Shown piece by piece: positions 1 to 58,037 of a DNA stretch of 64,000 bases; the first letter of the stretch is position 1, and each line of letters begins with the position of its first letter. Both the position numbers and the translations under genes were made by a program. The stretch is taken from NCBI GenBank assembly GCA_965214095.1, contig OZ243938.1, positions 4,864,001-4,928,000 of the forward strand, in the 5' to 3' direction. The notes below the pieces were generated by a model. That model saw only the letters and a list, made by a program, of their open reading frames with translations, did not search any database and was not told the DNA's origin. This DNA comes from Candidatus Poribacteria bacterium. GTDB taxonomy: Bacteria > Poribacteria > WGA-4E > WGA-3G.

Positions 1-106
1 GAATCCCTTTATTGTAGACTGCTGGTCTTACTGATGTATGTCGTTGATGTAATGGATTCTTATGCCGTTCATGGCAACGAGATATAATTCTGTTAAGTCT
101 TTTCAT
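1..106 (-). CDS. Possible N-terminus of a gene running off the window edge (MKRLNRIISRCHERHKNPLHQ...)
   Basis: ATG at 106 opens a frame to position 1. No recognisable motif and no clear RBS. Confidence 0.3.
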   Translation of the reverse strand, partial: MKRLNRIISRCHERHKNPLHQRHTSVRPAVYNKGI

Positions 107-30110: not shown

Positions 30111-33100
30111 ATGGCAGAAGCGTCAATTGAAATACACGGTGCAAGAGAACACAATCTAAAAAATATAGATATCAGCCTACCTAAGGATAAACTAATTGTA
30201 TTTACTGGCGTTAGTGGTTCGGGCAAATCATCACTTGCAATCGATACATTATATGCAGAAGGACAACGGCGTTACATTGAATCACTTTCAGCGTATGCAC
30301 GTCAGTTTTTAGGACAACTCGGTAAAGCCGAAGTAGACAAGATAGTAGGTTTATCCCCTTCAATAGCGATTGACCAAGGTTCATCAGGACATAATCCACG
30401 CTCAACGGTTGCCACAGTCACCGAAATTTACGATTATCTGAGAGTGCTATTTGCGCGTGCAGGTCAATTCCATTGTCTTGAATGTGACCAGTTAGTCGGT
30501 TCCCAAACAATTGCTGACATCGTATCACACATCCTCAGTTTTCCACCACGTTCACGATTAATGATATTAGCTCCGATTGTCAGAGGAAGACGGGGAGAAT
30601 ATCGGAAAGAGTTATCTGATGCCCGAAGGATGGGATTCGTTCGCGCAAGAATTGATGGGGAAGTCCACGAGATCAGCTCCAATATCGCACTCAACCCAAA
30701 TCAACGGCACAACATTGATATTGTTGTTGATAGAATAATTATCAAAGAAGACATTGATAGTCGTGTCGCTGAAGCAGTGGAAACAGCTCTTTCACTCGGT
30801 GATGATAGTCTGATTGTCAATGTTGTTGCTTCTAACCGTTCTACTACAACCAAAGCGGCAGAAAGTGAAGATTTTCTATTTAGCAGACAATATGCCTGTG
30901 TAGATTGTCAAATAAGTTACGATGTACCCGAACCTCGTCATTTCTCATTTAATAGTCCTTACGGAATGTGTCAACATTGTAGAGGATTGGGTGTGCAGAT
31001 GGCAATTTCACCCAAATTAATAGTAGCGGATGAATCACGCTCCATCTTGGATGGCGCATTAATTTTATGGGAAAAACCTGATCATCAGGAGAAAATGGTC
31101 CTACAGACCTTAGCATCACACCTTAAATTCAAAATTAACTCACCGTGGAAAGACTTAACAACGGATCAACAACATGCAATATTATATGGTACGGGTGATA
31201 AAGTCCTTTCATTTCGTGAACCTTCAAAAGGTCGTAGAAGGAATAGACGTATACGAGGAAGATTTCAAGGATTGATTCCAGCCCATGAAGAACGATTCCT
31301 ATCGTTGTATGTTAATGAAGAAGGCGGGGAATCATACCTGCCAGATTATTTCGCTAAAGCACCATGTAGAGAATGCAATGGATCACGGCTGAATAAAGTT
31401 GTAACAGGAGTTAAACTTACTGATGTAGATATTACTGAAGTTCTGAATATGTCAATTCAGGATGCGACGTCCTTTTTCAATGGTCTGAAACTATCTGAAC
31501 GACAGAATGTGATAGCTTCTGAACTCTTGAAAGAGATACGCACACGACTCGGTTTCCTTATGGATGTTGGATTAGGTTATCTCACGTTATCACGTTCTGC
31601 ACCAACACTATCGGGTGGCGAAGCACAAAGGATACGACTTGCAAGTCAAGTCGGTGCGGGGTTACGCGATGTTACGTATGTCCTTGATGAACCGAGCATC
31701 GGTCTACACCCGCGTGACCACGCAGGTTTGCTGAAAACACTTATTAATCTACGGAATCAAGGCAATACAGTCATCGTCGTTGAACACGACGAAGCAACAA
31801 TGTTGGTAGCGGACCTGATTGTTGATTTCGGTCCGGGGGCAGGGATTAGAGGCGGAGAAATTACCGGTATTGGCACACCAGACCAATTTAAAGAGACAGA
31901 TTCGCTTACAGCACAATATTTACGTGGTGATAAAGAAATTGTTCATCCAGAAGAACGGCGTCAGAATGATGATAAGTGGCTACAAATATGTAAAGCACAG
32001 CAAAATAATCTAAAAAGTATCGATCCAAGAATTCCGATTGGCACGCTCTGTTGCGTAACTGGAGTAAGTGGTTCTGGAAAGAGTTCTCTTATCCATGATA
32101 TTCTATACAAAGCACTTGCCAGAGATTTAATGAAAGCAAAGACTGTGCCGGGTGACTATGAAAAGATTCAGGGGATTGTTGATGGTGAACCTGTCCCTGT
32201 CTCAGATGTCATAGACAAAATCATCAACATTGATATGTCACCCATAGGTCGGACACCTCGCTCCAATCCTGCAACCTATACAAAAGTTTTTGATGCAATC
32301 AGATCATTTTATACAAACTTGCCTGATGCTAAACTTCGTGGATATAAACCTGGACGTTTTAGTTTCAACGTTCCGGGTGGTAGATGTGAAGCCTGTACAG
32401 GCAACGGTGCAAAAAAAGTTGACATGGGTATACTTGCGGATGTGTGGGTTGAATGTGATGTTTGTAACGGTAAACGGTATAACAATGAAACCCTCACTAT
32501 AAAATACAAAGGCAAGAACATATCCGATGTATTAGAAATGGATATTGAATCTGCACTTGAGCATTTTGCGGATCTCCCGAAAATTGCAAAAGGAATTCAG
32601 TTGCTTCACGATGTAGGTTTAGACTACATCAAACTTGGTCAACCTGCTCCAACACTTTCTGGTGGTGAGGCACAGAGAATTAAACTCTCAAAAGAACTTT
32701 CAAAACGGAGTACCGGTAAGACACTTTATATTCTTGATGAACCGACTACTGGTCTACACTTTGAAGATGTCAATAAGCTGCTAACTATTCTTCACAGATT
32801 AGTTGATGAAGGTAATACTGTTGTGGTGGTGGAACACAATCTTGAAGTGATTAATTCTGCTGATTACCTTATTGATTTAGGTCCTGAAGGAGGAATTGAT
32901 GGTGGACAGATTATTGCAGTTGGCACGCCTGAAGAGGTGAAAGATAAATCCGAATCGTATACTGGACAAGCATTACATGGGGAATATGATCTGTGGAAAT
33001 CGCTGGACTCTAAACCGTCAGTTGAAGATAACGGTGATGTTGCACAAGACCTACTCGATCAAAAACAGACCGAAATACGTAAGTCTATCTTGGTTCAAGG

Positions 33101-35828
33101 AGCTGGTGAAAACAACCTTAAGAACATCAATATTGAAATACCGCATCAGAAGTTAACTGCGTTTACAGGTGTTAGTGGATCAGGCAAGACATCTCTTGCA
33201 CTTGATACTATTTATGCTGAAGGACAACGAAGATATATTGAGACACTTAGCACTTATGCACGGCAATTTATTGGGAGTATGGACAAACCGAAAGTGGCTA
33301 AGATTGAAGGATTGTCACCTGCAATTGCTATAACTCACTCAAGTCCAAGCCAGAACCCTCGCTCTACCGTTGCTACGATAACTGAAATACATGACGGTCT
33401 TCGAACACTATATGCAAGATGGGGGCAACCGCACTGTCCATCTTGTGAAGTGGAAGTCCGTCCACAAACAGCACAACAGATTGTAGAACGTTCTTTCAAA
33501 AATTTGAAAGGCAAAAGAGTAGATGTACTTTCACCACTCACGAATTTCAAATCTATCGAAAATGATACTGAGGTCGTTATTGGTGCAGAACGAACACCCG
33601 GTCTAAAGGGAAATGAGGATTATGCCGATGCATTTCAAAGATTGCAACGAACAGGATTTGCACGCGTACAGATTGATGGTGAAATCTATAGGCTTGATGA
33701 AGCACCTGATATCCGAAAACGTCGTCGGCATGAAGTGTTTTTGGTCATTGATCGGCTGAATCTTGTTGAAGATGAGATAAGTCGTTTCACTGAGACTGTA
33801 GAATTAGCACTCATCGAAAGTGAAGGTTTTGTAATCATTCAACCGAATGATAGTAAAGAATTATCTGAAAGACAATTTTTCAGTGAACACGCTATGTGTT
33901 CAAAATGTGGACGGAATTTCCCGCAACTAACACCCCGACACTTCTCATTCAACAATAGATTAGGGGCTTGCAGTTCTTGCGACGGTATTGGTAGAGAATT
34001 AACGGATGACCAATCAACCTGCGAGGATTGTTATGGGACAAGATTAGATGAATTTCCAAGAAATGTCAGATATACTGAAAAAACAATTGCAGAACTGATG
34101 GCTTTGTCAATCGCTGAGATTTCATCGTTTTTCAATGGACAGATAGAAACTATTGAGAAACATCTAACAACGGCTGCAGGTGCTAAGGAAGCAGAATCAG
34201 CGAAGGATCAAGTGCGAAACGTTATTACTTCAAGGGCAACACACCCAAGACTTCATGCACATACATCACCTGAATTTGAAGCACAACTTTTAAGGCAAAT
34301 TCAGTTACGGTTGAGTTTTTTAGAGGATATCGGGCTCGGATACCTCGGTTTAGATAGAACTGCCCCAACGCTTTCTGGTGGAGAAATCCGCAGAATCCGA
34401 CTTGCAAGCCAACTTGGAACTGGACTTACTGGAGTTACTTATATCCTTGATGAACCGAGTATCGGTCTGCACCCGCGCGATCAAGAACGGTTGATTTATG
34501 CAATGAAAGATCTGCGCGACATCGGTAACAGTGTCCTGGTTGTTGAACACGACAGAGATACAATTATGTCTTCTGATCATGTTATTGATTTCGGTCCAAA
34601 AGCAGGAAAGCAAGGTGGAGAAATAGTTGCGGTTGGAACACCAAACGCATTTTCTAACGCAGAACCGATTTCTATGGAAACCGCCATACAATCAGATAAC
34701 GGGGATGACTCTGCAAGAGATGCGAACCTTACAGCCAAAAAAGGATTAACACAGTCATATCTATCAAACGAGATGCAAATCCCTGTTCCAGCGGTGCGTC
34801 GAAAAGGTTCAGGTAAAAGCCTTAAACTGTTCGGTGCAAGAACTAACAATCTTAAAGACATTGACATTAACATTCCAATAGGAACGCTTACATGTGTGAC
34901 GGGTGTTTCTGGGTGTGGAAAGAGCTCGCTGATTGAAGGCACATTACGACCGGCAATGGAATCACGCAAATCAATTAAAAAGAATAAAAATAACACTGGG
35001 AAAAACAATGTAACTGAGAACTATGACAAAATACAAGGTATAAGTCATGTTGAACGTATTATACACATTGATCAGAAACCGATAGGTGAAACACCACGAT
35101 CTAATCCGGCAACCTATACTGACCTATTTACCAAGATTCGTGAGATGTATGCAGAATTACCTGACGCAAAACTTCGTGGATTTAATCGGGGACGTTTCAG
35201 TTTCAACCTATCTTATGGGCAATGTGAAGTATGTGATGGACAACGTTACAATCGTGTTGAGATGCATTTCTTACCCGATGTATGGATACCTTGTGAAAAC
35301 TGCAATAGCACAGGATATAATGCTGAAACATTAGAAGTGAAATACAAAGGCAAAAACATAGCCGAAGTGTTACAGATGACAGTGCTAGAGGCACTTGAAC
35401 TGTTTAGTAACATCAACCGAATTAAACGCACACTCCAAACTTTAGCAGATGTAGGTTTGGATTATATCCAGTTAGGTCAAGCTGCAACTACGCTTTCTGG
35501 TGGAGAAGCACAACGGGTTAAACTTGCAAAGGAACTCGCAAGAAGACAGACTGGAACGACTCTTTACATTATGGATGAACCCACAACTGGTTTGCACTTT
35601 GACGATGTGCAAAAACTTCTCAATGTCCTAAATAAACTTGTTGATGTGGGTAATACAATCGTTGCAGTTGAACACAATCTGGATGTCATTAAATCTGCAG
35701 ATTGGGTTATTGATTTGGGACCTGAGGGAAGTGATGCTGGAGGATACCTTGTAGGAATGGGAACTCCTGAAGAGGTGGCTGAAGTGAAAGAATCACATAC
35801 TGCTCGTTTCCTCCGTGAGATACTTTAG
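30111..35828 (+). CDS. uvrA: Excinuclease ABC subunit A, double-length (two UvrA units, four ABC ATPase domains)
   Basis: [10 protein letters not shown] start. Four TGVSG(S/C)GK(S/T)S Walker A motifs. Four LSGGE signatures. Zinc-finger Cys pairs. Confidence 0.95.
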
Positions 35829-36267: not shown

Positions 36268-36486
36268 ATGATTCATATAAAAGAAGAACTCTGCGTATAT
36301 TGCGGGGCATGCGTAGCAGTATGTCCAGAAAACATAATTGAACTTGTAGACACACATCTTAAAATTGACCAACCTAAGTGTATTGATTGTATGAAATGTG
36401 TAAAAGGGTGTCCCATAGGGGTACTATCTATGGAACGTAAAGGAAAAATATACGAATTTGATTTTCCAAACAGAGGTCTTTTCTAA
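36268..36486 (+). CDS. 2x[4Fe-4S] ferredoxin
   Basis: CVYCGACVAVCP and CIDCMKCVKGCP. GAGG RBS. Confidence 0.92.
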   Translation: MIHIKEELCVYCGACVAVCPENIIELVDTHLKIDQPKCIDCMKCVKGCPIGVLSMERKGKIYEFDFPNRGLF

Positions 36487-36518
36487 TCCTATTGTAGAAT
36501 TAGAATAAATGATTACGC

Positions 36519-36621
36519 TATGGTGAAGTATAAAATTATATCTACACTTTCGTCCCACGGTAGACGAGGTTTCCTAACCTCGCCTCAGCAATGTGTAGAA
36601 TTTATTCAATAATTTACTCTA
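36519..36621. repeat. Diverged copy of the 103-bp REP-core element
   Basis: CCCACGGTAGACGAGGTTTCCTAACCTCGCC core with degenerate TATGGTGAA...TTTACTCTA ends. Confidence 0.65.
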
Positions 36622-36641
36622 AATATTCACTGAGATGAAAT

Positions 36642-37835
36642 ATGTATCATTCAGATTATGATGTTATAGTTGTTGGTGCGGGACCGGGCGGATCTATTGC
36701 AGCAAAAGTTGCTGCTGAAAACGATTTACGCGTCCTGCTTTTAGAAAAACGACAAGAAATTGGAACACCCCTCCGCTGAGCGGAGGGGATTGGCACAGTG
36801 GATCTGTGTGAATTTATTCAACCGGAACCTGCATGGATATCGCGTACAATACACGGTGTCCGACTCTTTTCACCAAATGAAACTCCTGTTACTATTCATC
36901 ATGAAGATGCTGGTTATGTAATTGAGCGGAAAGTGTTTGATCGAAGACTTGTGGAATTAGCTACTAATGCTGGTGTGGAAATCATGGTTAAGGCACGTGT
37001 CACTGATGTAACCACCACAGAGAGTAATGTTGTTAACGGGGTCGTTTTCCAGTATTCTGGTCGCGAGTACAAATGTAGAGCCAAAGTTGTCATCGCAGCT
37101 GATGGTGTAGAATCTCAAGTAGGACGTTGGGCAGGTATTGATACAACACATCAACTCCGCGACGTTGGTATATGTGCACAATATCTCATCTCAAATATTG
37201 ACATCATACCAGAATATTTGGATTTTTATTTCGGCAAGGAGAAAGCTCCACTCGGATATATTTGGGTCTTTCCAAAAGGTGATGATATTGCTAATGTTGG
37301 GATAGGAATTAGAGGGAGTATATCTGGAAAAAGTGATAAACTTGCTATAGATTACTTAAACGAGTTTGTTAAAAGAAAGTTCCCAGAGGGAAAGACATTA
37401 GGGTTAGTCTGTGGTGCTGTACCAGTTGGAACAGGTTTACCACGAATAGTCGGAGATGGAATATTGCTTGTAGGAGATGCAGCACATCACAGTGACCCCT
37501 GTTCAGGTGGCGGTATTCCAAATGCAATGTTCTCTGGTAAATATGCTGCAGAAGCTGCTATTGAAGGTATACATAAAGGGGATGTCTCTCAGAAAGTACT
37601 TAGTTCGTATGCTAAAAAGTGGGAACGTGAGAAAGGAAGAAACTTCAAACGTATCTGTCGTATCAGAGATTGTGTTCTCAAATATACTGATGAAATGTAT
37701 GATGAATATGCCGAAGTACTCTCTAAAGTACCCAGTGATCAGATGACATTAGCAAAAATCTTCCAAACCTTCCTAAGACATCAACCGAGTTTACTTCTTG
37801 AATTGCGTCATCTGATTTTAGCAGGATGGGTATAG
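36642..37835 (+). CDS. Geranylgeranyl reductase / DGGGPL-reductase-family FAD oxidoreductase with in-frame TGA (putative Sec46), 397 aa
   Basis: ATG 36642 gives [13 protein letters not shown]...[22 protein letters not shown] in frame with the 345-aa ORF. Also [11 protein letters not shown] and [15 protein letters not shown] motifs. Confidence 0.85.
36789..36813 (+). promoter_or_regulatory. Putative bacterial SECIS element
   Basis: ATTGGCACAG-TGGAT-CTGTGTGAAT stem-loop. The loop starts 19 nt after the TGA and has G at loop position 2. Confidence 0.65.
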
Positions 37836-39113: not shown

Positions 39114-40001
39114 TTGCGAAACGAAGTCCAATGGGAACGCATGTTCCCAGACGAATTAGAAGCAGCTTTTGACAAGTGTCCCGCGGTCTATTTCACCTAC
39201 GGTCTCTGCGAACCGCACGGACCACAAAATACCGTCGGACTGGATGCACTCAAAGCACACGCAATCGCTTGTCGTGCAGCACAACAACACGGCGGCATTG
39301 TCGCACCTCCAGACTATTGGCATATCCACGAAACAGGAACTTATGCGAATTGGGCACAAAAGAATGTCGGTGAAGTGCGGAGTTGGATGACTGCAATGCC
39401 AGCATGGCAACATTTTAAAAATGTCTGCTATCATGTGCGTGCTGCAGATGCGCTCGGATTCCACGCAGCAATCTTCCTCACAGGACATTACGGACCGAAT
39501 TGGCAAGACCTGAAGATGCTCCTTGAGATACTTCAACCACACTTCGCAATACGTCTATATGGACTACCAGATTTTGAAGCAAACACTAAAGGCTTCAGCG
39601 GACAAGGTGATGGTGGAGACCATGCAGGTAGAGTTGAAACATCACTCTTGTGGGCATTAGAACCGGACTGTGTTGATATGTCTCGGATGCCAGAAAAAAA
39701 CGAACCCGGTCCACACTTCGCTATGGGTGGAAACGCTTATGACTCTGACCGTCGCATCGGTGAAAGAATGGTGAACGATGAAGTGACATGGCTTGGCAAC
39801 AAAATGAAAGAATTATTGGATGAATACGCGCATCTAAATATATCCGACCGTCAACCTGTAACTTTCGGAGAAGTTGAACAAATTTGGGAACAACAAGTGA
39901 AACCTGTATTGAATACCTTTAAAACAATGGAAAATACTGGTGAACCGCCGCCGATAGATTCTCAATGGTTCCGTCAATGGAAAATACCAGAAATTGATTG
40001 A
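39114..40001 (+). CDS. Creatininase / mycofactocin peptidase-like amidohydrolase family protein
   Basis: GAGGAG RBS before TTG 39114. G.CEPHG..N..GLD, TGHYG, DHAGRVETS motifs. Confidence 0.85.
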   Translation: MRNEVQWERMFPDELEAAFDKCPAVYFTYGLCEPHGPQNTVGLDALKAHAIACRAAQQHGGIVAPPDYWHIHETGTYANWAQKNVGEVRSWMTAMPAWQHFKNVCYHVRAADALGFHAAIFLTGHYGPNWQDLKMLLEILQPHFAIRLYGLPDFEANTKGFSGQGDGGDHAGRVETSLLWALEPDCVDMSRMPEKNEPGPHFAMGGNAYDSDRRIGERMVNDEVTWLGNKMKELLDEYAHLNISDRQPVTFGEVEQIWEQQVKPVLNTFKTMENTGEPPPIDSQWFRQWKIPEID

Positions 40002-40014
40002 AAAAGGACATCAC

Positions 40015-40776
40015 ATGAAATCAACAAATGGACAACTATTAGCTGCCTATCAGAATAATGGATACTTGACTGGCATACATATCGCTGATGACTCTGAGGC
40101 AACGCAGTACCGAAAAGAATATGACGCATTAGAAGCAAAAGTCGGCAAAGAAAAATGCGAAATCGGACTCATTGATTGGCATTTTGATTACGAGTTTATA
40201 TGGCAAATATCCATTCACCCTAAAATCCTTGATGTAATTGAAGAACTCATCGGACCTGATGTAATGCTATTAGCAACACACTTTTTCTGCAAGTATGGTC
40301 CACGAGAAAAATTCGTTGCTTGGCATCAGGATGTAACCTATTGGGGATTGGAACCACCGGATGCTGTCACTTCATGGTATGCAATTGATGACAGCGATGT
40401 TGGTAATGGGTGTATGCAAGTGATACCGGGCAGCCATAACAAAGGTATCCAAGAACACGGCAAATCTGAACAGGAAGGTAATCTACTAAGTATCAATCAG
40501 GAAGTTCCTGTAACAGAAGATATGGCAAACACGGCAGTTGATTTGGTATTGAAAGCAGGTGAGATGTCAATACATCACGGTCAGATTATTCATGGAAGTC
40601 TACCAAACCATTCTACGCGCAGACGTTGTGGTCTGACAATACGTTACATCTCTCCATCAGTTAGGCAAGCAGAAGATAATTCGTTGAAAAGACCTTGGAA
40701 ACCTATTCTGTTGCGAGGCGAAGATCGTCACCAAAATTTCACAACTGTCTCTAATCCTTTCCCGCTAACCCATTAG
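40015..40776 (+). CDS. PhyH family Fe(II)/2OG dioxygenase
   Basis: AAGGA RBS. WHQDVTYW, NGCMQVIPGSH, HGS.PN.S.RRR.G motifs. Confidence 0.9.
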   Translation: MKSTNGQLLAAYQNNGYLTGIHIADDSEATQYRKEYDALEAKVGKEKCEIGLIDWHFDYEFIWQISIHPKILDVIEELIGPDVMLLATHFFCKYGPREKFVAWHQDVTYWGLEPPDAVTSWYAIDDSDVGNGCMQVIPGSHNKGIQEHGKSEQEGNLLSINQEVPVTEDMANTAVDLVLKAGEMSIHHGQIIHGSLPNHSTRRRCGLTIRYISPSVRQAEDNSLKRPWKPILLRGEDRHQNFTTVSNPFPLTH

Positions 40777-42081: not shown

Positions 42082-44145
42082 CTATTTCAGACCGGGAATT
42101 TTTGATTTAAGTTCATTAATCTGATCGCGTAACGACGCTGCAAGTTCAAATTCAAGGTCTATTGCAGCCTTGTGCATCTGGCGGGTTAGATCATCAATTC
42201 TCGCTATAATATCTTCTTCATTTGTTTCTTCTACTACAGCTACTGGGGCAATATCTTCGGGTTTACTCGTAATGTATTCCTCCGTAGATTCAGAGATGAG
42301 TTGTTCAATCGCTTTCTGAATTGTAACAGGAGTAATATCATTTTCCTCGTTATATTTCAATTGTATGTCGCGTCTACGTTGTGTTTCTGCCATCGCATCT
42401 GCCATTGCTTCAGTGACAGTATCACCATATAACAGCACTTCTCCATCAACATTTCGCGCAGCACGACCCGATGTCTGAACCAATGATGTGACTGACCTAA
42501 GGAAACCGGGACGATCAGCATCCAATATCGCCACGAGAGAGACTTCAGGAAGGTCAAGTCCTTCACGTAGTAGGTTGATACCGATAAGAACATCAAATTC
42601 ACCTTCACGAAGTTGACGTAATATACGGGCACGGTCAAATACATCTATCTCAGAATGCAAGTAGTTTGCACGGATACCTGCCTCAATAAAATACTCACTT
42701 AAGTCCTCTGCCATCCGTTTGGTAAGCGTTGTAACAAGTACACGCTGTTTCTGCTTCACACGTTCATGTATCTTACCGATAAGATGGTCAATCTGTCCAC
42801 TGACAGGATGTACAGAAATTTGAGGATCAATCAGTCCTGTCGGACGTATGATCTGTTCTACGATTTGTCCACCACCTTTTTCCTCAATCTCATATTTACC
42901 GGGTGTGGCAGATACAAATATAACCTGATCCCAATAGGCTTCTACCTCTTCAAACTTGAGTGGTCGGTTGTCTAATGCTGAGGGTAAACGGAAACCGTGC
43001 TCTACGAGTGTTGTTTTTCTCGCACGGTCTCCACGATACATGCCTTTCAATTGTGGAATTGTAACATGAGATTCATCAATGAAAAGTAGAAAATCTTCTG
43101 GAAAGTAATTTAGAAGACAGTACGGGGGTTCACCCTCTTGCAATCCAGATAAGTGGCGTGAGTAATTTTCTATACCAGAGCAGTAACCAACTTCACGTAG
43201 CATTTCCAAATCAAAACGTGTTCGTTGTTCAACGCGTTGTGCTTCTAACAGTTTATTCTCTTTCTCAAAAGTTGCTATACAATCGTGCAACTCAAGTTCA
43301 ATGTTGATAAGTGCTTCTTCAAATATATCAGCATCGGTCATAAAGTGTCTCGCGGGATATATTTCAAGAGTGTTCTGTTTTGTTAAGATTTCGCCTGTGG
43401 TAGTATCAATTTCACAAATTCTATCTACTTCATCACCAAAAAGTTCAATACGGAATGCGCTTTCACTATAAGCGGGAAACACCTCAATAACATCACCACG
43501 CACACGGAATGTCCCTTGCCAAAAATCCACATCGTTGCGAACATACTGAATAGATACCAAATCGCGCAGGAATTCATCGCGCCGAATCATCTTTCCGATT
43601 TCCAAATCAATTTTCTGACCTTCAAATTCGCGGGGTGAACCCAAACCATATATACATGAAACACTCGCAACAATCACAACATCACGTCGTGACATCAATG
43701 AAGCAGTAGATGCAAGTCGCATCCGAGTAATCTCCTCATTTATGCGAACATCTTTCTCTATAAACGTATCAGTAGATGGGATGTATGCTTCAGGTTGGTA
43801 GTACTCATAATCACTAACGAAATAGTGGACGGCGTTATGCGGAAAAAAGGATTTAAACTCATTATAGAGTTGGGCAGATAAGGTTTTGTTTGGAGAGATG
43901 ACGAGTGTGGGACGTTGCACATTTTGAATGACATTTGCCATCGTATACGTCTTACCAGACCCCGTCACACCGAGTAGTGTTTGCACTCTATCTCTACGTA
44001 AAATACCATTTGTCAATTTCTCTATCGCTGCAGGTTGATCGCCTTCTGGATCAAAATCGGAGACTAACTCAAACGGTTCTGTAGGAATCTCTGGGTTTAT
44101 ATTAATTGGAGATATTGAGGGACGTGCGTCAAAGTGTTCTCTCAT
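42082..44145 (-). CDS. uvrB: Excinuclease ABC subunit B
   Basis: GDQPAAI, GVTGSGKT, YYQPEAY beta-hairpin, DESH, LLREGLD motifs and a C-terminal UVR domain. Confidence 0.97.
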   Translation of the reverse strand: MREHFDARPSISPININPEIPTEPFELVSDFDPEGDQPAAIEKLTNGILRRDRVQTLLGVTGSGKTYTMANVIQNVQRPTLVISPNKTLSAQLYNEFKSFFPHNAVHYFVSDYEYYQPEAYIPSTDTFIEKDVRINEEITRMRLASTASLMSRRDVVIVASVSCIYGLGSPREFEGQKIDLEIGKMIRRDEFLRDLVSIQYVRNDVDFWQGTFRVRGDVIEVFPAYSESAFRIELFGDEVDRICEIDTTTGEILTKQNTLEIYPARHFMTDADIFEEALINIELELHDCIATFEKENKLLEAQRVEQRTRFDLEMLREVGYCSGIENYSRHLSGLQEGEPPYCLLNYFPEDFLLFIDESHVTIPQLKGMYRGDRARKTTLVEHGFRLPSALDNRPLKFEEVEAYWDQVIFVSATPGKYEIEEKGGGQIVEQIIRPTGLIDPQISVHPVSGQIDHLIGKIHERVKQKQRVLVTTLTKRMAEDLSEYFIEAGIRANYLHSEIDVFDRARILRQLREGEFDVLIGINLLREGLDLPEVSLVAILDADRPGFLRSVTSLVQTSGRAARNVDGEVLLYGDTVTEAMADAMAETQRRRDIQLKYNEENDITPVTIQKAIEQLISESTEEYITSKPEDIAPVAVVEETNEEDIIARIDDLTRQMHKAAIDLEFELAASLRDQINELKSKIPGLK

Positions 44146-44445
44146 TTTTGTCAAACAAATCTATATGGGAACTTGTCAAGTCTGTTGAGATTTAATAATA
44201 GCATCAGTATTGTATTAGTAGTATAGCATGTTATGCATTTTGTTTGTAAGAAAGTATAACTGAATGGGTATCTAAAGTTTTAGGTGAAATATCCCAGTAA
44301 CCATTGTAGTACCAAAAACTTTACACATCCGCTGAATGTGAAGTAGTATGGAAAATAAAGCTGATTAACACAATCTCTGCAATGCCTGGCCGATTCTCGT
44401 TTATGAATGATTGGTTTTCTATGTGGTATGCTCAGTTGACTGACA

Positions 44446-57302: not shown

Positions 57303-58037
57303 TTATGTTCCTTTCTGCATACTGTTTCTTAGAATAGGAGGTGTTCCCTCATCCTGTAAAAGCGAAAGTGTTTCAGCAATTATCGCATGTTGTAATTCTG
57401 AATTGTTCGGTTCTCCCAACGGATGTCCAAAACTATACGGAACAAGCAATGCACGCGGGGGTTTCACCTTCTTCGTGATGTCTTCCAAGAGTGTAATAGA
57501 TACAGTAGATATTCCCACTTCTTCAACAACACGTTGAATCAATCCTACAGACTGATTGCATAGCGGTCACACCGGAGTTAAGAATGCAACATCAACACCA
57601 TCAGCTTTAAGCATCCTTGCTACCTCTGGAGCAGTGTCCGCAATGAGATGCTTCGGTCTTGAAATTGATCCCATAAAACTGAAGTGTCTATGATTAAGAG
57701 AACCGATTTTTCCTTCATTCTCCAGTTCTTTAAAACGATCAATAGGAAAAACAAGATTGGCATCTGTTTTTGTATCAGACTTATCGTAGGCAACGCTTTT
57801 ATGTCCGACCTTTAGTTCATTAGACTGAATTGAATTGGGAATCTCGCGGTAGGAACAATCACCGTTTACATAAGGTTCCTGTCCATTGATATAAAATCCC
57901 GCAGTCGTAATGAGAACAACATTACATTCATTCAAAGGTTTCTTAAGCGGTGTGTTTGGAGTCGTGCCATACCGTTTGCCACGATAAAACCGCATAAAGA
58001 AACGGAATAATGGTTCAAGTTCACTTATTGATGCCAT
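57303..58037 (-). CDS. GrdB/PrdB-like (glycine/sarcosine/betaine/proline reductase selenoprotein B family) selenoprotein, Sec157, 244 aa
   Basis: The 156-aa and 79-aa ORFs join in frame through the TGA at 57567-57569: DGVDVAFLTPV-U-PLCNQSVGLIQRVVEEVGISTV. Also TTAG, D.N.VFPIDR, PPRAL...GHPLG motifs. Confidence 0.9.
57537..57557 (-). promoter_or_regulatory. Putative bacterial SECIS element
   Basis: AATCAGTC-TGTAG-GATTGATT 8-bp stem. The loop starts 17 nt after the TGA and has G at loop position 2. Confidence 0.7.

Follow-up and report, generated by a model that had tools for sequence, protein, structure and literature searches.

We analysed a 64,000-nucleotide stretch of DNA (G000:C1:4864001-4928000, referred to below as the window) from the 5.25-Mb genome of a Candidatus Poribacteria bacterium, and found that a gene on its forward strand, at positions 36642 to 37835, very probably encodes a full-length, 397-residue enzyme of the geranylgeranyl reductase (GGR) family that depends on flavin adenine dinucleotide (FAD) and in which UGA codon 46 (36777-36779) is decoded as selenocysteine (Sec) by the canonical bacterial pathway. 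That the gene product is a selenoprotein we hold with high confidence; that the enzyme saturates the isoprenoid chains of ether lipids is a reading toward which we lean with appreciably less assurance. The original prediction for this locus, made from the letters of the window, was of a seleno-flavoprotein isoprenoid reductase, and the comparative sequence evidence (alternation of TGA and Cys codons among homologs, a conserved selenocysteine insertion sequence [SECIS] hairpin, the Sec machinery of the genome and independent assemblies) supports it.

UGA at the position of the catalytic cysteine

In the list of open reading frames (ORFs) for the window, the gene is split into a 45-codon ORF at 36642-36779, closed by the TGA at 36777-36779, and a 345-residue ORF at 36798-37835 in the same frame, which starts with GTG and is without the Rossmann motif GxGxxG. 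When the TGA is taken as a residue, the two become a single 397-residue protein ending at the TAG at 37833-37835; this is the only in-frame TGA in 36642-37835, and the start at the ATG at 36642 is fixed because a further in-frame TGA stands two codons upstream. The read-through protein has V-G-A-G-P-G-G at residues 11-17 and GTPLR-U-AEGIG around codon 46, and the FAD-binding G12-A-G-P-G-G17 is present solely on read-through. Reading the frame in this way bears out the original claim that the 345-residue ORF lacks GxGxxG and that upstream extension across the TGA restores it, and confirms that a single in-frame TGA interrupts a GGR-family ORF.

The 397-residue protein matches the profiles TIGR02032 (230 bits, cut-off 158.8) and PF22578 (GGR_cat; 88.7 bits, cut-off 27), and its closest solved relative is the digeranylgeranylglycerophospholipid (DGGGPL) reductase of Thermoplasma acidophilum (PDB 3oz2; E = 1.2e-74, residues 5-392). 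Among the GGR motifs named in PMC10821996 (statements drawn from this paper and from PMC7852524 refer to the available sections of each), GxGxxG is accompanied in the reductase by the catalytic PxxYxWxFP (P203-L-G-Y-I-W-V-F-P211) and by two FAD-contact motifs, RxxxD (R-K-V-F-D) and LxGD (L-V-G-D). The same source describes a flavin-proximal cysteine ('Cys47'), conserved throughout the archaeal GGRs and indispensable to the Sulfolobus acidocaldarius enzyme, and the role given for it there is speculative, either electron transfer or the tuning of flavin reactivity. The column of this cysteine is exactly the TGA column, and the cysteine of PDB 3oz2 aligns with codon 46; the homolog alignment and the structure thus agree with the earlier statement that the TGA falls at the conserved GGR cysteine next to the FAD, where the predicted residue would be Sec, the selenium analogue of Cys. 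The likeness to archaeal DGGGPL reductases and GGRs (T. acidophilum 3oz2; S. acidocaldarius 3atq and related entries) is one of full-length homology, with the same FAD and catalytic motifs and with the catalytic cysteine column of the archaeal enzymes matching the UGA column of the Poribacterial gene, whereas the Poribacterial protein differs in its predicted Sec in place of Cys, its bacterial host, its identity of about 40% and its scores below the NCBIfam equivalog cut-offs.

Homologs were compared in three sets: 41 relatives, 176 genomes of the phylum (ortholog at E <= 1e-60) and named public records. Within the first set, all 16 full-length orthologs (67-100% identity, the window's own genome G000 included) carry exactly one TGA, at the same codon throughout. 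Orthologs occur in 55 of the 176 phylum genomes, and one TGA is present in 39/39 in-order orthologs carrying the region, from four families of the window's order at 66-100% protein identity (one of these 39 rows has a TAG in addition, and one is truncated at a contig end). The other 16 ortholog rows have no stop: three are partial pieces of in-order genomes (G016, G028 and G068), and the remaining 13, at 46-64% identity, belong to other orders or classes. Eleven of these 13 were retrieved (G043 and G055 were left out), and every one has Cys at the aligned column (TGT in eight, TGC in three). Named public records show TGA at 18/18 Poribacterial loci, the closest of them titled Candidatus Poribacteria and up to 98% identical over the reductase gene, and Cys in 62/62 non-Poribacterial homologs at 32-43% identity (TGC 33, TGT 29; Chloroflexota, Ignavibacteria, ANME-1, Methanosarcinales, Methanobacteria, Methanomassiliicoccales and others). 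The alternation at codon 46, which had been proposed as a check, is therefore clean, with 42 TGA loci versus 73 Cys loci (11 deeper Poribacteria plus 62 other bacteria and archaea) at one and the same column.

A quick maximum-likelihood tree (LG+G4) was built from 70 rows. Of these, 29 are distinct Sec forms and 11 are Cys forms from Poribacteria; the outgroup contributes 30 of its 62 loci. Outgroup rows L091-L122 were not used, nor were duplicates or any row in which fewer than 330 residues aligned. All 29 Sec proteins fall into a single clade (SH-aLRT 99) that branches from within a grade of Poribacterial Cys forms, and only one state change is needed, indicating that a single Cys-to-Sec replacement took place in a lineage already decoding Sec; it would have happened at the base of one Candidatus Poribacteria order. 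SelA is matched in 38 of the 39 TGA-bearing genomes, the exception being G066 (90% complete, in 730 contigs).

Predicted recoding signal, translation and decoding machinery

A predicted bacterial SECIS hairpin lies on the forward strand at 36789-36813, with a 6-bp core (upper) stem at 36793-36798 / 36804-36809, an apical loop of sequence UGGAU at 36799-36803, and a 3-bp lower stem at 36789-36791 / 36811-36813. The core stem begins thirteen nucleotides past the UGA, and the apical loop 19 nucleotides past it in the window (19-20 nucleotides overall). The minimum free energy (MFE) is -12.0 kcal/mol for 36786-36821, and the 96-nucleotide region has z = -3.3 against 200 shuffles. In its loop, 6-bp upper stem, 19-nucleotide spacing and energy, the hairpin fits the bacterial SECIS model of PMC13188914 (Figure 2 legend: loop of 3-9 nucleotides, upper stem of 4-16 bp, G in the first two loop positions, UGA spacing of 16-37 nucleotides, MFE <= -7.5 kcal/mol); the energy limit is reached by 14 of 18 relatives in a fixed 34-nucleotide window.

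Across the 29 distinct Sec-form sequences the 7-bp stem comprises 203 cells, of which 96.6% are paired, compared with 86.9 +/- 1.3 in shuffles (0/500 reach the observed value); slid registers of the stem pair at 11.8-62.6%. In three of the seven stem pairs both partners have changed (23 cells). The loop has a three-base core that opens with an invariant G (alignment column 39), followed by G or U. The compensatory changes span codons and alter amino acids jointly (Thr/Cys, Ala/His and Ala/Arg), indicating that RNA structure is shaping the protein. At the SECIS register, 96.3% of cells are paired in the TGA loci, with at least six of seven pairs in 42/42; the corresponding values are 27.3% and 0/11 for the Poribacterial Cys loci, and 31.1% and 2/62 for the other Cys loci. 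Conservation, covariation, agreement with the bacterial model and this lack at Cys loci together uphold the SECIS-like hairpin originally noted 19 nucleotides downstream. Once established, the SECIS would have placed constraints on the codons downstream, with the protein motif T/A-x-x-L-C/H/R tracking the stem, and the gene would thereby offer an example of a SECIS that arose inside a coding region and then dictated protein sequence. An Rfam gathering-threshold scan of the whole window returned 0 matches, and the hairpin thus falls outside the curated RNA families. RNAalifold, applied to a 25-sequence alignment, produced a different and weak structure (-6.24 kcal/mol, one compensatory pair), which we did not adopt.

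Directly abutting the SECIS is a further predicted structure that the original prediction had not mentioned, a perfect 9-bp hairpin on the forward strand at 36768-36788 that presents the UGA as its triloop. Its inner 5 bp alone recur in relatives, it shows no compensatory change and is kept only as far as the closest relative, and synonymous changes in a near strain weaken its outer stem. Its pairing is 73.6%, as compared with 73.8% in shuffles (474/500 shuffles reach it), and a partial palindrome of the same kind occurs in Cys forms from Poribacteria (complementarity of Arg/Ala and Val/Glu codons). As a new recoding signal it was rejected, there being no covariation and pairing equal to that in shuffles; we judge it to be a by-product of complementary codons (Pro/Gly, Leu/Glu and Arg/Ala).

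Selection on the two sides of the TGA was evaluated over the 29 distinct Sec-form genes. Upstream, codons 3-45 have a synonymous proportion (pS) of 0.717 and a nonsynonymous proportion (pN) of 0.076, for a pN/pS of 0.106; downstream, codons 47-146 have a pN/pS of 0.252. Strong purifying selection therefore acts on the Rossmann segment, in the same frame as the part beyond the TGA, and this excludes a pseudogene or an independent 345-residue product. Public gene calls stop short of this and begin at many different codons. Each of the 57 matches listed at 65% identity or more spans no more than 87% of the query (232-346 residues, by hand count), and named examples of public calls are a 348-residue 'NAD(P)/FAD-dependent oxidoreductase' and a 292-residue 'digeranylgeranylglycerophospholipid reductase'. 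This flags a systematic annotation error, gene callers taking the Sec codon as a stop and leaving the public proteins of this type truncated. Parts of the stretch occur in 17 sequencing runs from 10 studies, none of them on record as RNA. The contigs of the four runs compared give the gene only thin coverage, and the sole contig that spans the TGA (run X6, 36691-36948) has seven differences, none of them at 36777-36779. Sequencing error is excluded because independent assemblies agree on the TGA, which is the stronger evidence, and because the X6 contig carries it; the doubt about position 36777 raised with the original prediction is thereby settled in favor of TGA.

All four components of Sec decoding that had been singled out for confirmation are present in the genome: tRNA-Sec (selC; 78.1 bits, anticodon TCA), SelB (355.5 bits, directly upstream of tRNA-Sec), SelA (616.3 bits) and SelD (361.4 bits), the last with an in-frame TGA of its own and thus predicted to contain Sec. 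The selB gene and then the tRNA-Sec gene lie at G000:C1:4987445-4989585, about 60 kb past the end of the window. The archaeal Sec pathway was considered and set aside: a search of the genome for SepSecS gave only a 22.5-bit match, indicating that the Sec pathway is of the bacterial type. SelA is found in 163 of the 176 phylum genomes (130/133 of high quality), indicating that Sec decoding is a phylum-wide trait, and a published survey, in its available part, includes Poribacteria among the phyla with Sec-containing group 4 hydrogenases. TGA closes four of the 33 open frames of at least 250 codons in the window, and hence is still a stop in this genome. In the proposed mechanism, SelA, SelB, tRNA-Sec and SelD, together with the in-gene SECIS and its apical loop 19-20 nucleotides downstream, would decode UGA codon 46 as Sec, which would take the place of the flavin-adjacent cysteine on which catalysis depends in archaeal GGRs.

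The window holds a second selenoprotein gene, on the reverse strand at 57303-58037, which encodes a GRDB/PrdB-like protein of 244 residues with U157 in a UxxC motif (U-P-L-C). The match to PF07355 (37.2 bits, cut-off 22) and the UxxC motif justify the earlier assignment of this gene to a known selenoprotein family. A hairpin with a 9-bp stem and the loop GUA lies 18 nucleotides past its UGA, and is of the same design as the reductase SECIS.

Ferredoxin and putative ether-lipid genes

Upstream of the reductase, on the same strand at 36268-36486, is the gene for a 72-residue 2x[4Fe-4S] ferredoxin (Pfam Fer4_9/Fer4, NCBIfam FdxA_fam), the likely electron donor of the reductase. A same-strand ferredoxin homolog stands directly upstream of the GGR gene in most loci of each group (Sec, 38 of 43; Poribacterial Cys, 8 of 11; other Cys, 54 of 62), and in most relatives it abuts or overlaps the GGR start. 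In some Cys-form Poribacteria a single protein of 460-485 residues carries the ferredoxin fused ahead of the reductase (P0083-P0101 and similar), and residues 6-55 of one such fusion, P0093, are 56% identical to the window's ferredoxin; these natural fusions lend Rosetta-stone support to the ferredoxin as redox partner. The GGR of Methanosarcina acetivorans is reported to require a locus-encoded ferredoxin, its specific in vivo reductant (PMC10821996). The two systems are alike in that the gene next to the reductase specifies a small 4Fe-4S ferredoxin, to the point of fusion in Poribacteria, but the Methanosarcina enzyme is a Cys enzyme in an archaeon, and the Poribacterial partnership is a predicted one. 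In the window the two genes are separated by 155 nucleotides, a gap explained by the insertion of a dispersed repeat of about 100 nucleotides (36515-36630; 45 matches in the genome), the genes being abutting in relatives. Over this repeat, contig depth spikes at 36519-36625 and is very high in four runs, and one X5 contig skips 36514-36623.

GGGP synthase (GGGPS; PcrB family) is encoded immediately downstream of GGR in 26 of 39 Sec-form and 5 of 13 Cys-form genomes (coordinates read by hand). The GGGPS of the window's genome scores 220.5 bits against TIGR01769 (cut-off 161.55), and the GGR-adjacent copy in locus L056 scores 206.6 bits. UbiA-family genes lie upstream of GGR in L056 and L053; their top NCBIfam match is the generic prenyltransferase NF009523 (about 237 versus 269), followed by DGGGP synthase (DGGGPS) models (for example, NF009521, at 224-225 versus 296), all below cut-off. 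The window's genome has a 56%-identical ortholog of the DGGGPS-like UbiA at C1:1385605. A search with PF13685 for sn-glycerol-1-phosphate dehydrogenase gave four matches, the model being generic and also matching 13 of 14 control genomes. Clusters in other Poribacterial families run UbiA, DGGGPS-like UbiA, (SpoU methylase), ferredoxin, Sec-GGR and GGGPS (L056, 1-5019; L053, 986-4990); in L056 the cluster is followed by hrcA-grpE, and in the window's genome GGGPS is beside grpE-dnaJ. Judged from gene order, the ancestral arrangement is DGGGPS-like UbiA, ferredoxin, GGR and GGGPS, a putative archaeal-type ether-lipid module, and in the window's genus this cluster has been dispersed.

A comparable gene set is described in Ca. 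Cloacimonetes (FCB group), for which GGGPS, DGGGPS and Euryarchaeota-like GGR genes led to the proposal of an archaeal-type pathway (PMC7852524). Both groups are bacteria with such a trio of genes, in Poribacteria GGGPS, GGR and a DGGGPS-like gene, often as one cluster; they differ in phylum and in that the Poribacterial reductase is a predicted selenoprotein, and 'Poribacteria' does not occur in the available main text of PMC7852524.

From this context, the most likely role of the enzyme would be the ferredoxin-driven saturation of prenyl chains of an ether lipid of the GGGP or DGGGP type. Electrons would pass from the upstream-encoded 2x[4Fe-4S] ferredoxin to the enzyme, and FADH2 would reduce C=C bonds of the polyprenyl chain. 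A geranylgeranyl-glyceryl-phosphate-type ether lipid is the likeliest substrate because the ancestral operon is composed of DGGGPS-like UbiA, ferredoxin, GGR and GGGPS. Sec, a residue of lower pKa and stronger nucleophilicity that recovers more readily from oxidation, may tune flavin reactivity or oxygen tolerance.

Alternative readings and significance

Several observations weigh against the interpretation given here. The gene is frequently lost (it is present in only 7 of 39 genomes of the window's genus), and damaged copies exist (split in G016 and G028, with an extra TAG in G134, frameshifted in L059, and reduced to remnants in G021 and G025). Four of the 18 SECIS folds are weaker than -7.5 kcal/mol in the fixed 34-nucleotide window, and one stem pair is a C-C mismatch in three sequences. 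The protein misses the equivalog cut-offs for archaeal DGGGPL reductase (282.2 versus 780 for NF041160, 181.1 versus 580 for NF041080, and 99.2 versus 700 for NF041385), and is therefore filed at the family level only, its substrate being suggested by context. The GGGPS (C1:267794) and DGGGPS-like (C1:1385605) genes of the window's genome are dispersed rather than adjacent to GGR.

The split, multiply stopped or remnant copies are at G016:C133:66263-67452, G028:C2:1265194-1266383, G025:C20:68680-68898 and G021:C1:2207985-2208280. G016 (95% complete), in addition to having a split copy, lacks a SelA match, which hints at loss of the Sec trait along with decay of the reductase gene. The second in-frame stop of L060 / L141 (G134:C136) is a TAG about 60 nucleotides past the Sec TGA, where other orthologs have Trp, and represents either an assembly error or a decaying copy.

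Were the TGA a nonsense mutation, the gene would be a pseudogene or would yield only the product of the 345-residue downstream ORF. The truncated products given by gene callers and the decayed copies in some relatives would be expected in that case, but the TGA is fixed in 39 genomes spanning 66-100% protein identity and four families, the segment upstream of it has the low pN/pS given above, the truncated product would be without its FAD-binding Rossmann motif, and the varied starts of the public calls show no conserved restart; we consider this account very improbable. Equally improbable in our view is that the UGA is read as a standard amino acid (Trp, Cys or Gly), whether by code reassignment or by near-cognate suppression. 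Nothing specific favors it beyond the reported reassignment of UGA in some bacteria (the source being available in part), whereas TGA still closes long open frames in the window, the Sec machinery is complete, homologs have Cys at this column without exception, the hallmark of Sec/Cys pairs, and a SECIS-type hairpin co-occurs strictly with the TGA.

A different kind of alternative accepts a genuine Sec enzyme but assigns it another polyprenyl substrate (the menaquinone side chain, geranylgeranyl or phytyl diphosphate, or a polyprenol). GGR-family enzymes are promiscuous, with paralogs acting on quinones and polyprenols (PMC10821996), and the missed equivalog cut-offs, the unlinked genes in the window's genome and the uneven distribution of the two genes (GGGPS is kept in 144 of the 176 phylum genomes, versus GGR in only 55) all speak for such a substrate. 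Two points stand against these: different families, and Cys-form relatives as well, retain an operon of ferredoxin, GGR and GGGPS together with a DGGGPS-like UbiA, and the best structural relative is the Thermoplasma DGGGPL reductase. On balance we regard a substrate other than an ether lipid as unlikely, although by far the most serious of the three alternatives. Within the ether-lipid reading, we tentatively advance a broader proposal, about which we are somewhat more doubtful than convinced: that this is the first selenoenzyme of membrane-lipid biosynthesis, an archaeal-type GGR with Sec at the flavin that would draw on its own ferredoxin and belong to a bacterial ether-lipid pathway of GGGPS and DGGGPS.

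The original prediction had held that GGR is not among the commonly listed bacterial selenoproteins, and Table 1 of a 2026 review (PMC13188914) agrees: none of its 119 families, the whole table considered, is of the GGR type, although supplements of selenoprotein surveys and the BSepDB listing may hold one. The word 'geranylgeranyl' is missing from the main texts of PMC13188914, PMC12013277, PMC13326102, PMC9312934 and PMC2398784, and full-text literature searches gave no relevant paper on geranylgeranyl reductase with selenocysteine and none on a selenoprotein with digeranylgeranylglycerophospholipid reductase. The Sec-containing FAD-dependent oxidoreductases that Table 1 does list share that description with the present enzyme but belong to different flavoprotein families, with thiol, disulfide or sulfide redox chemistry rather than reduction of isoprenoid C=C bonds. 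On the comparative evidence, the reductase is a genuine, previously unlisted selenoprotein family using canonical bacterial Sec decoding, and would be a well-supported addition in a class (isoprenoid/lipid reduction) without a listed selenoprotein.

Sec and Cys orthologs within one phylum provide a natural experiment on GGR catalysis, in which the role of the essential cysteine is still speculative (PMC10821996); if our reading is true, this natural pair would reveal the role of that long-debated residue, and one order of Poribacteria, a sponge-associated bacterial lineage, would make saturated isoprenoid ether lipids in a selenium-dependent manner. The apparently overlooked archaeal-type ether-lipid gene cluster in Poribacteria also bears on the lipid divide; in the available portions of the literature searched, Poribacteria were not linked to GGGPS or DGGGPS beyond very broad essays.

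Among neighboring genes, one of the PhyH (phytanoyl-CoA dioxygenase) family lies at 39994-40776, 2 kb downstream of the reductase; the family is broad, and a link to isoprenoid chemistry is possible. A 1905-residue ORF at 30111-35828 has repeated ABC-ATPase and zinc-finger motifs in its translation and resembles two UvrA modules fused in tandem, and uvrB is nearby, on the reverse strand at 42082-44154.

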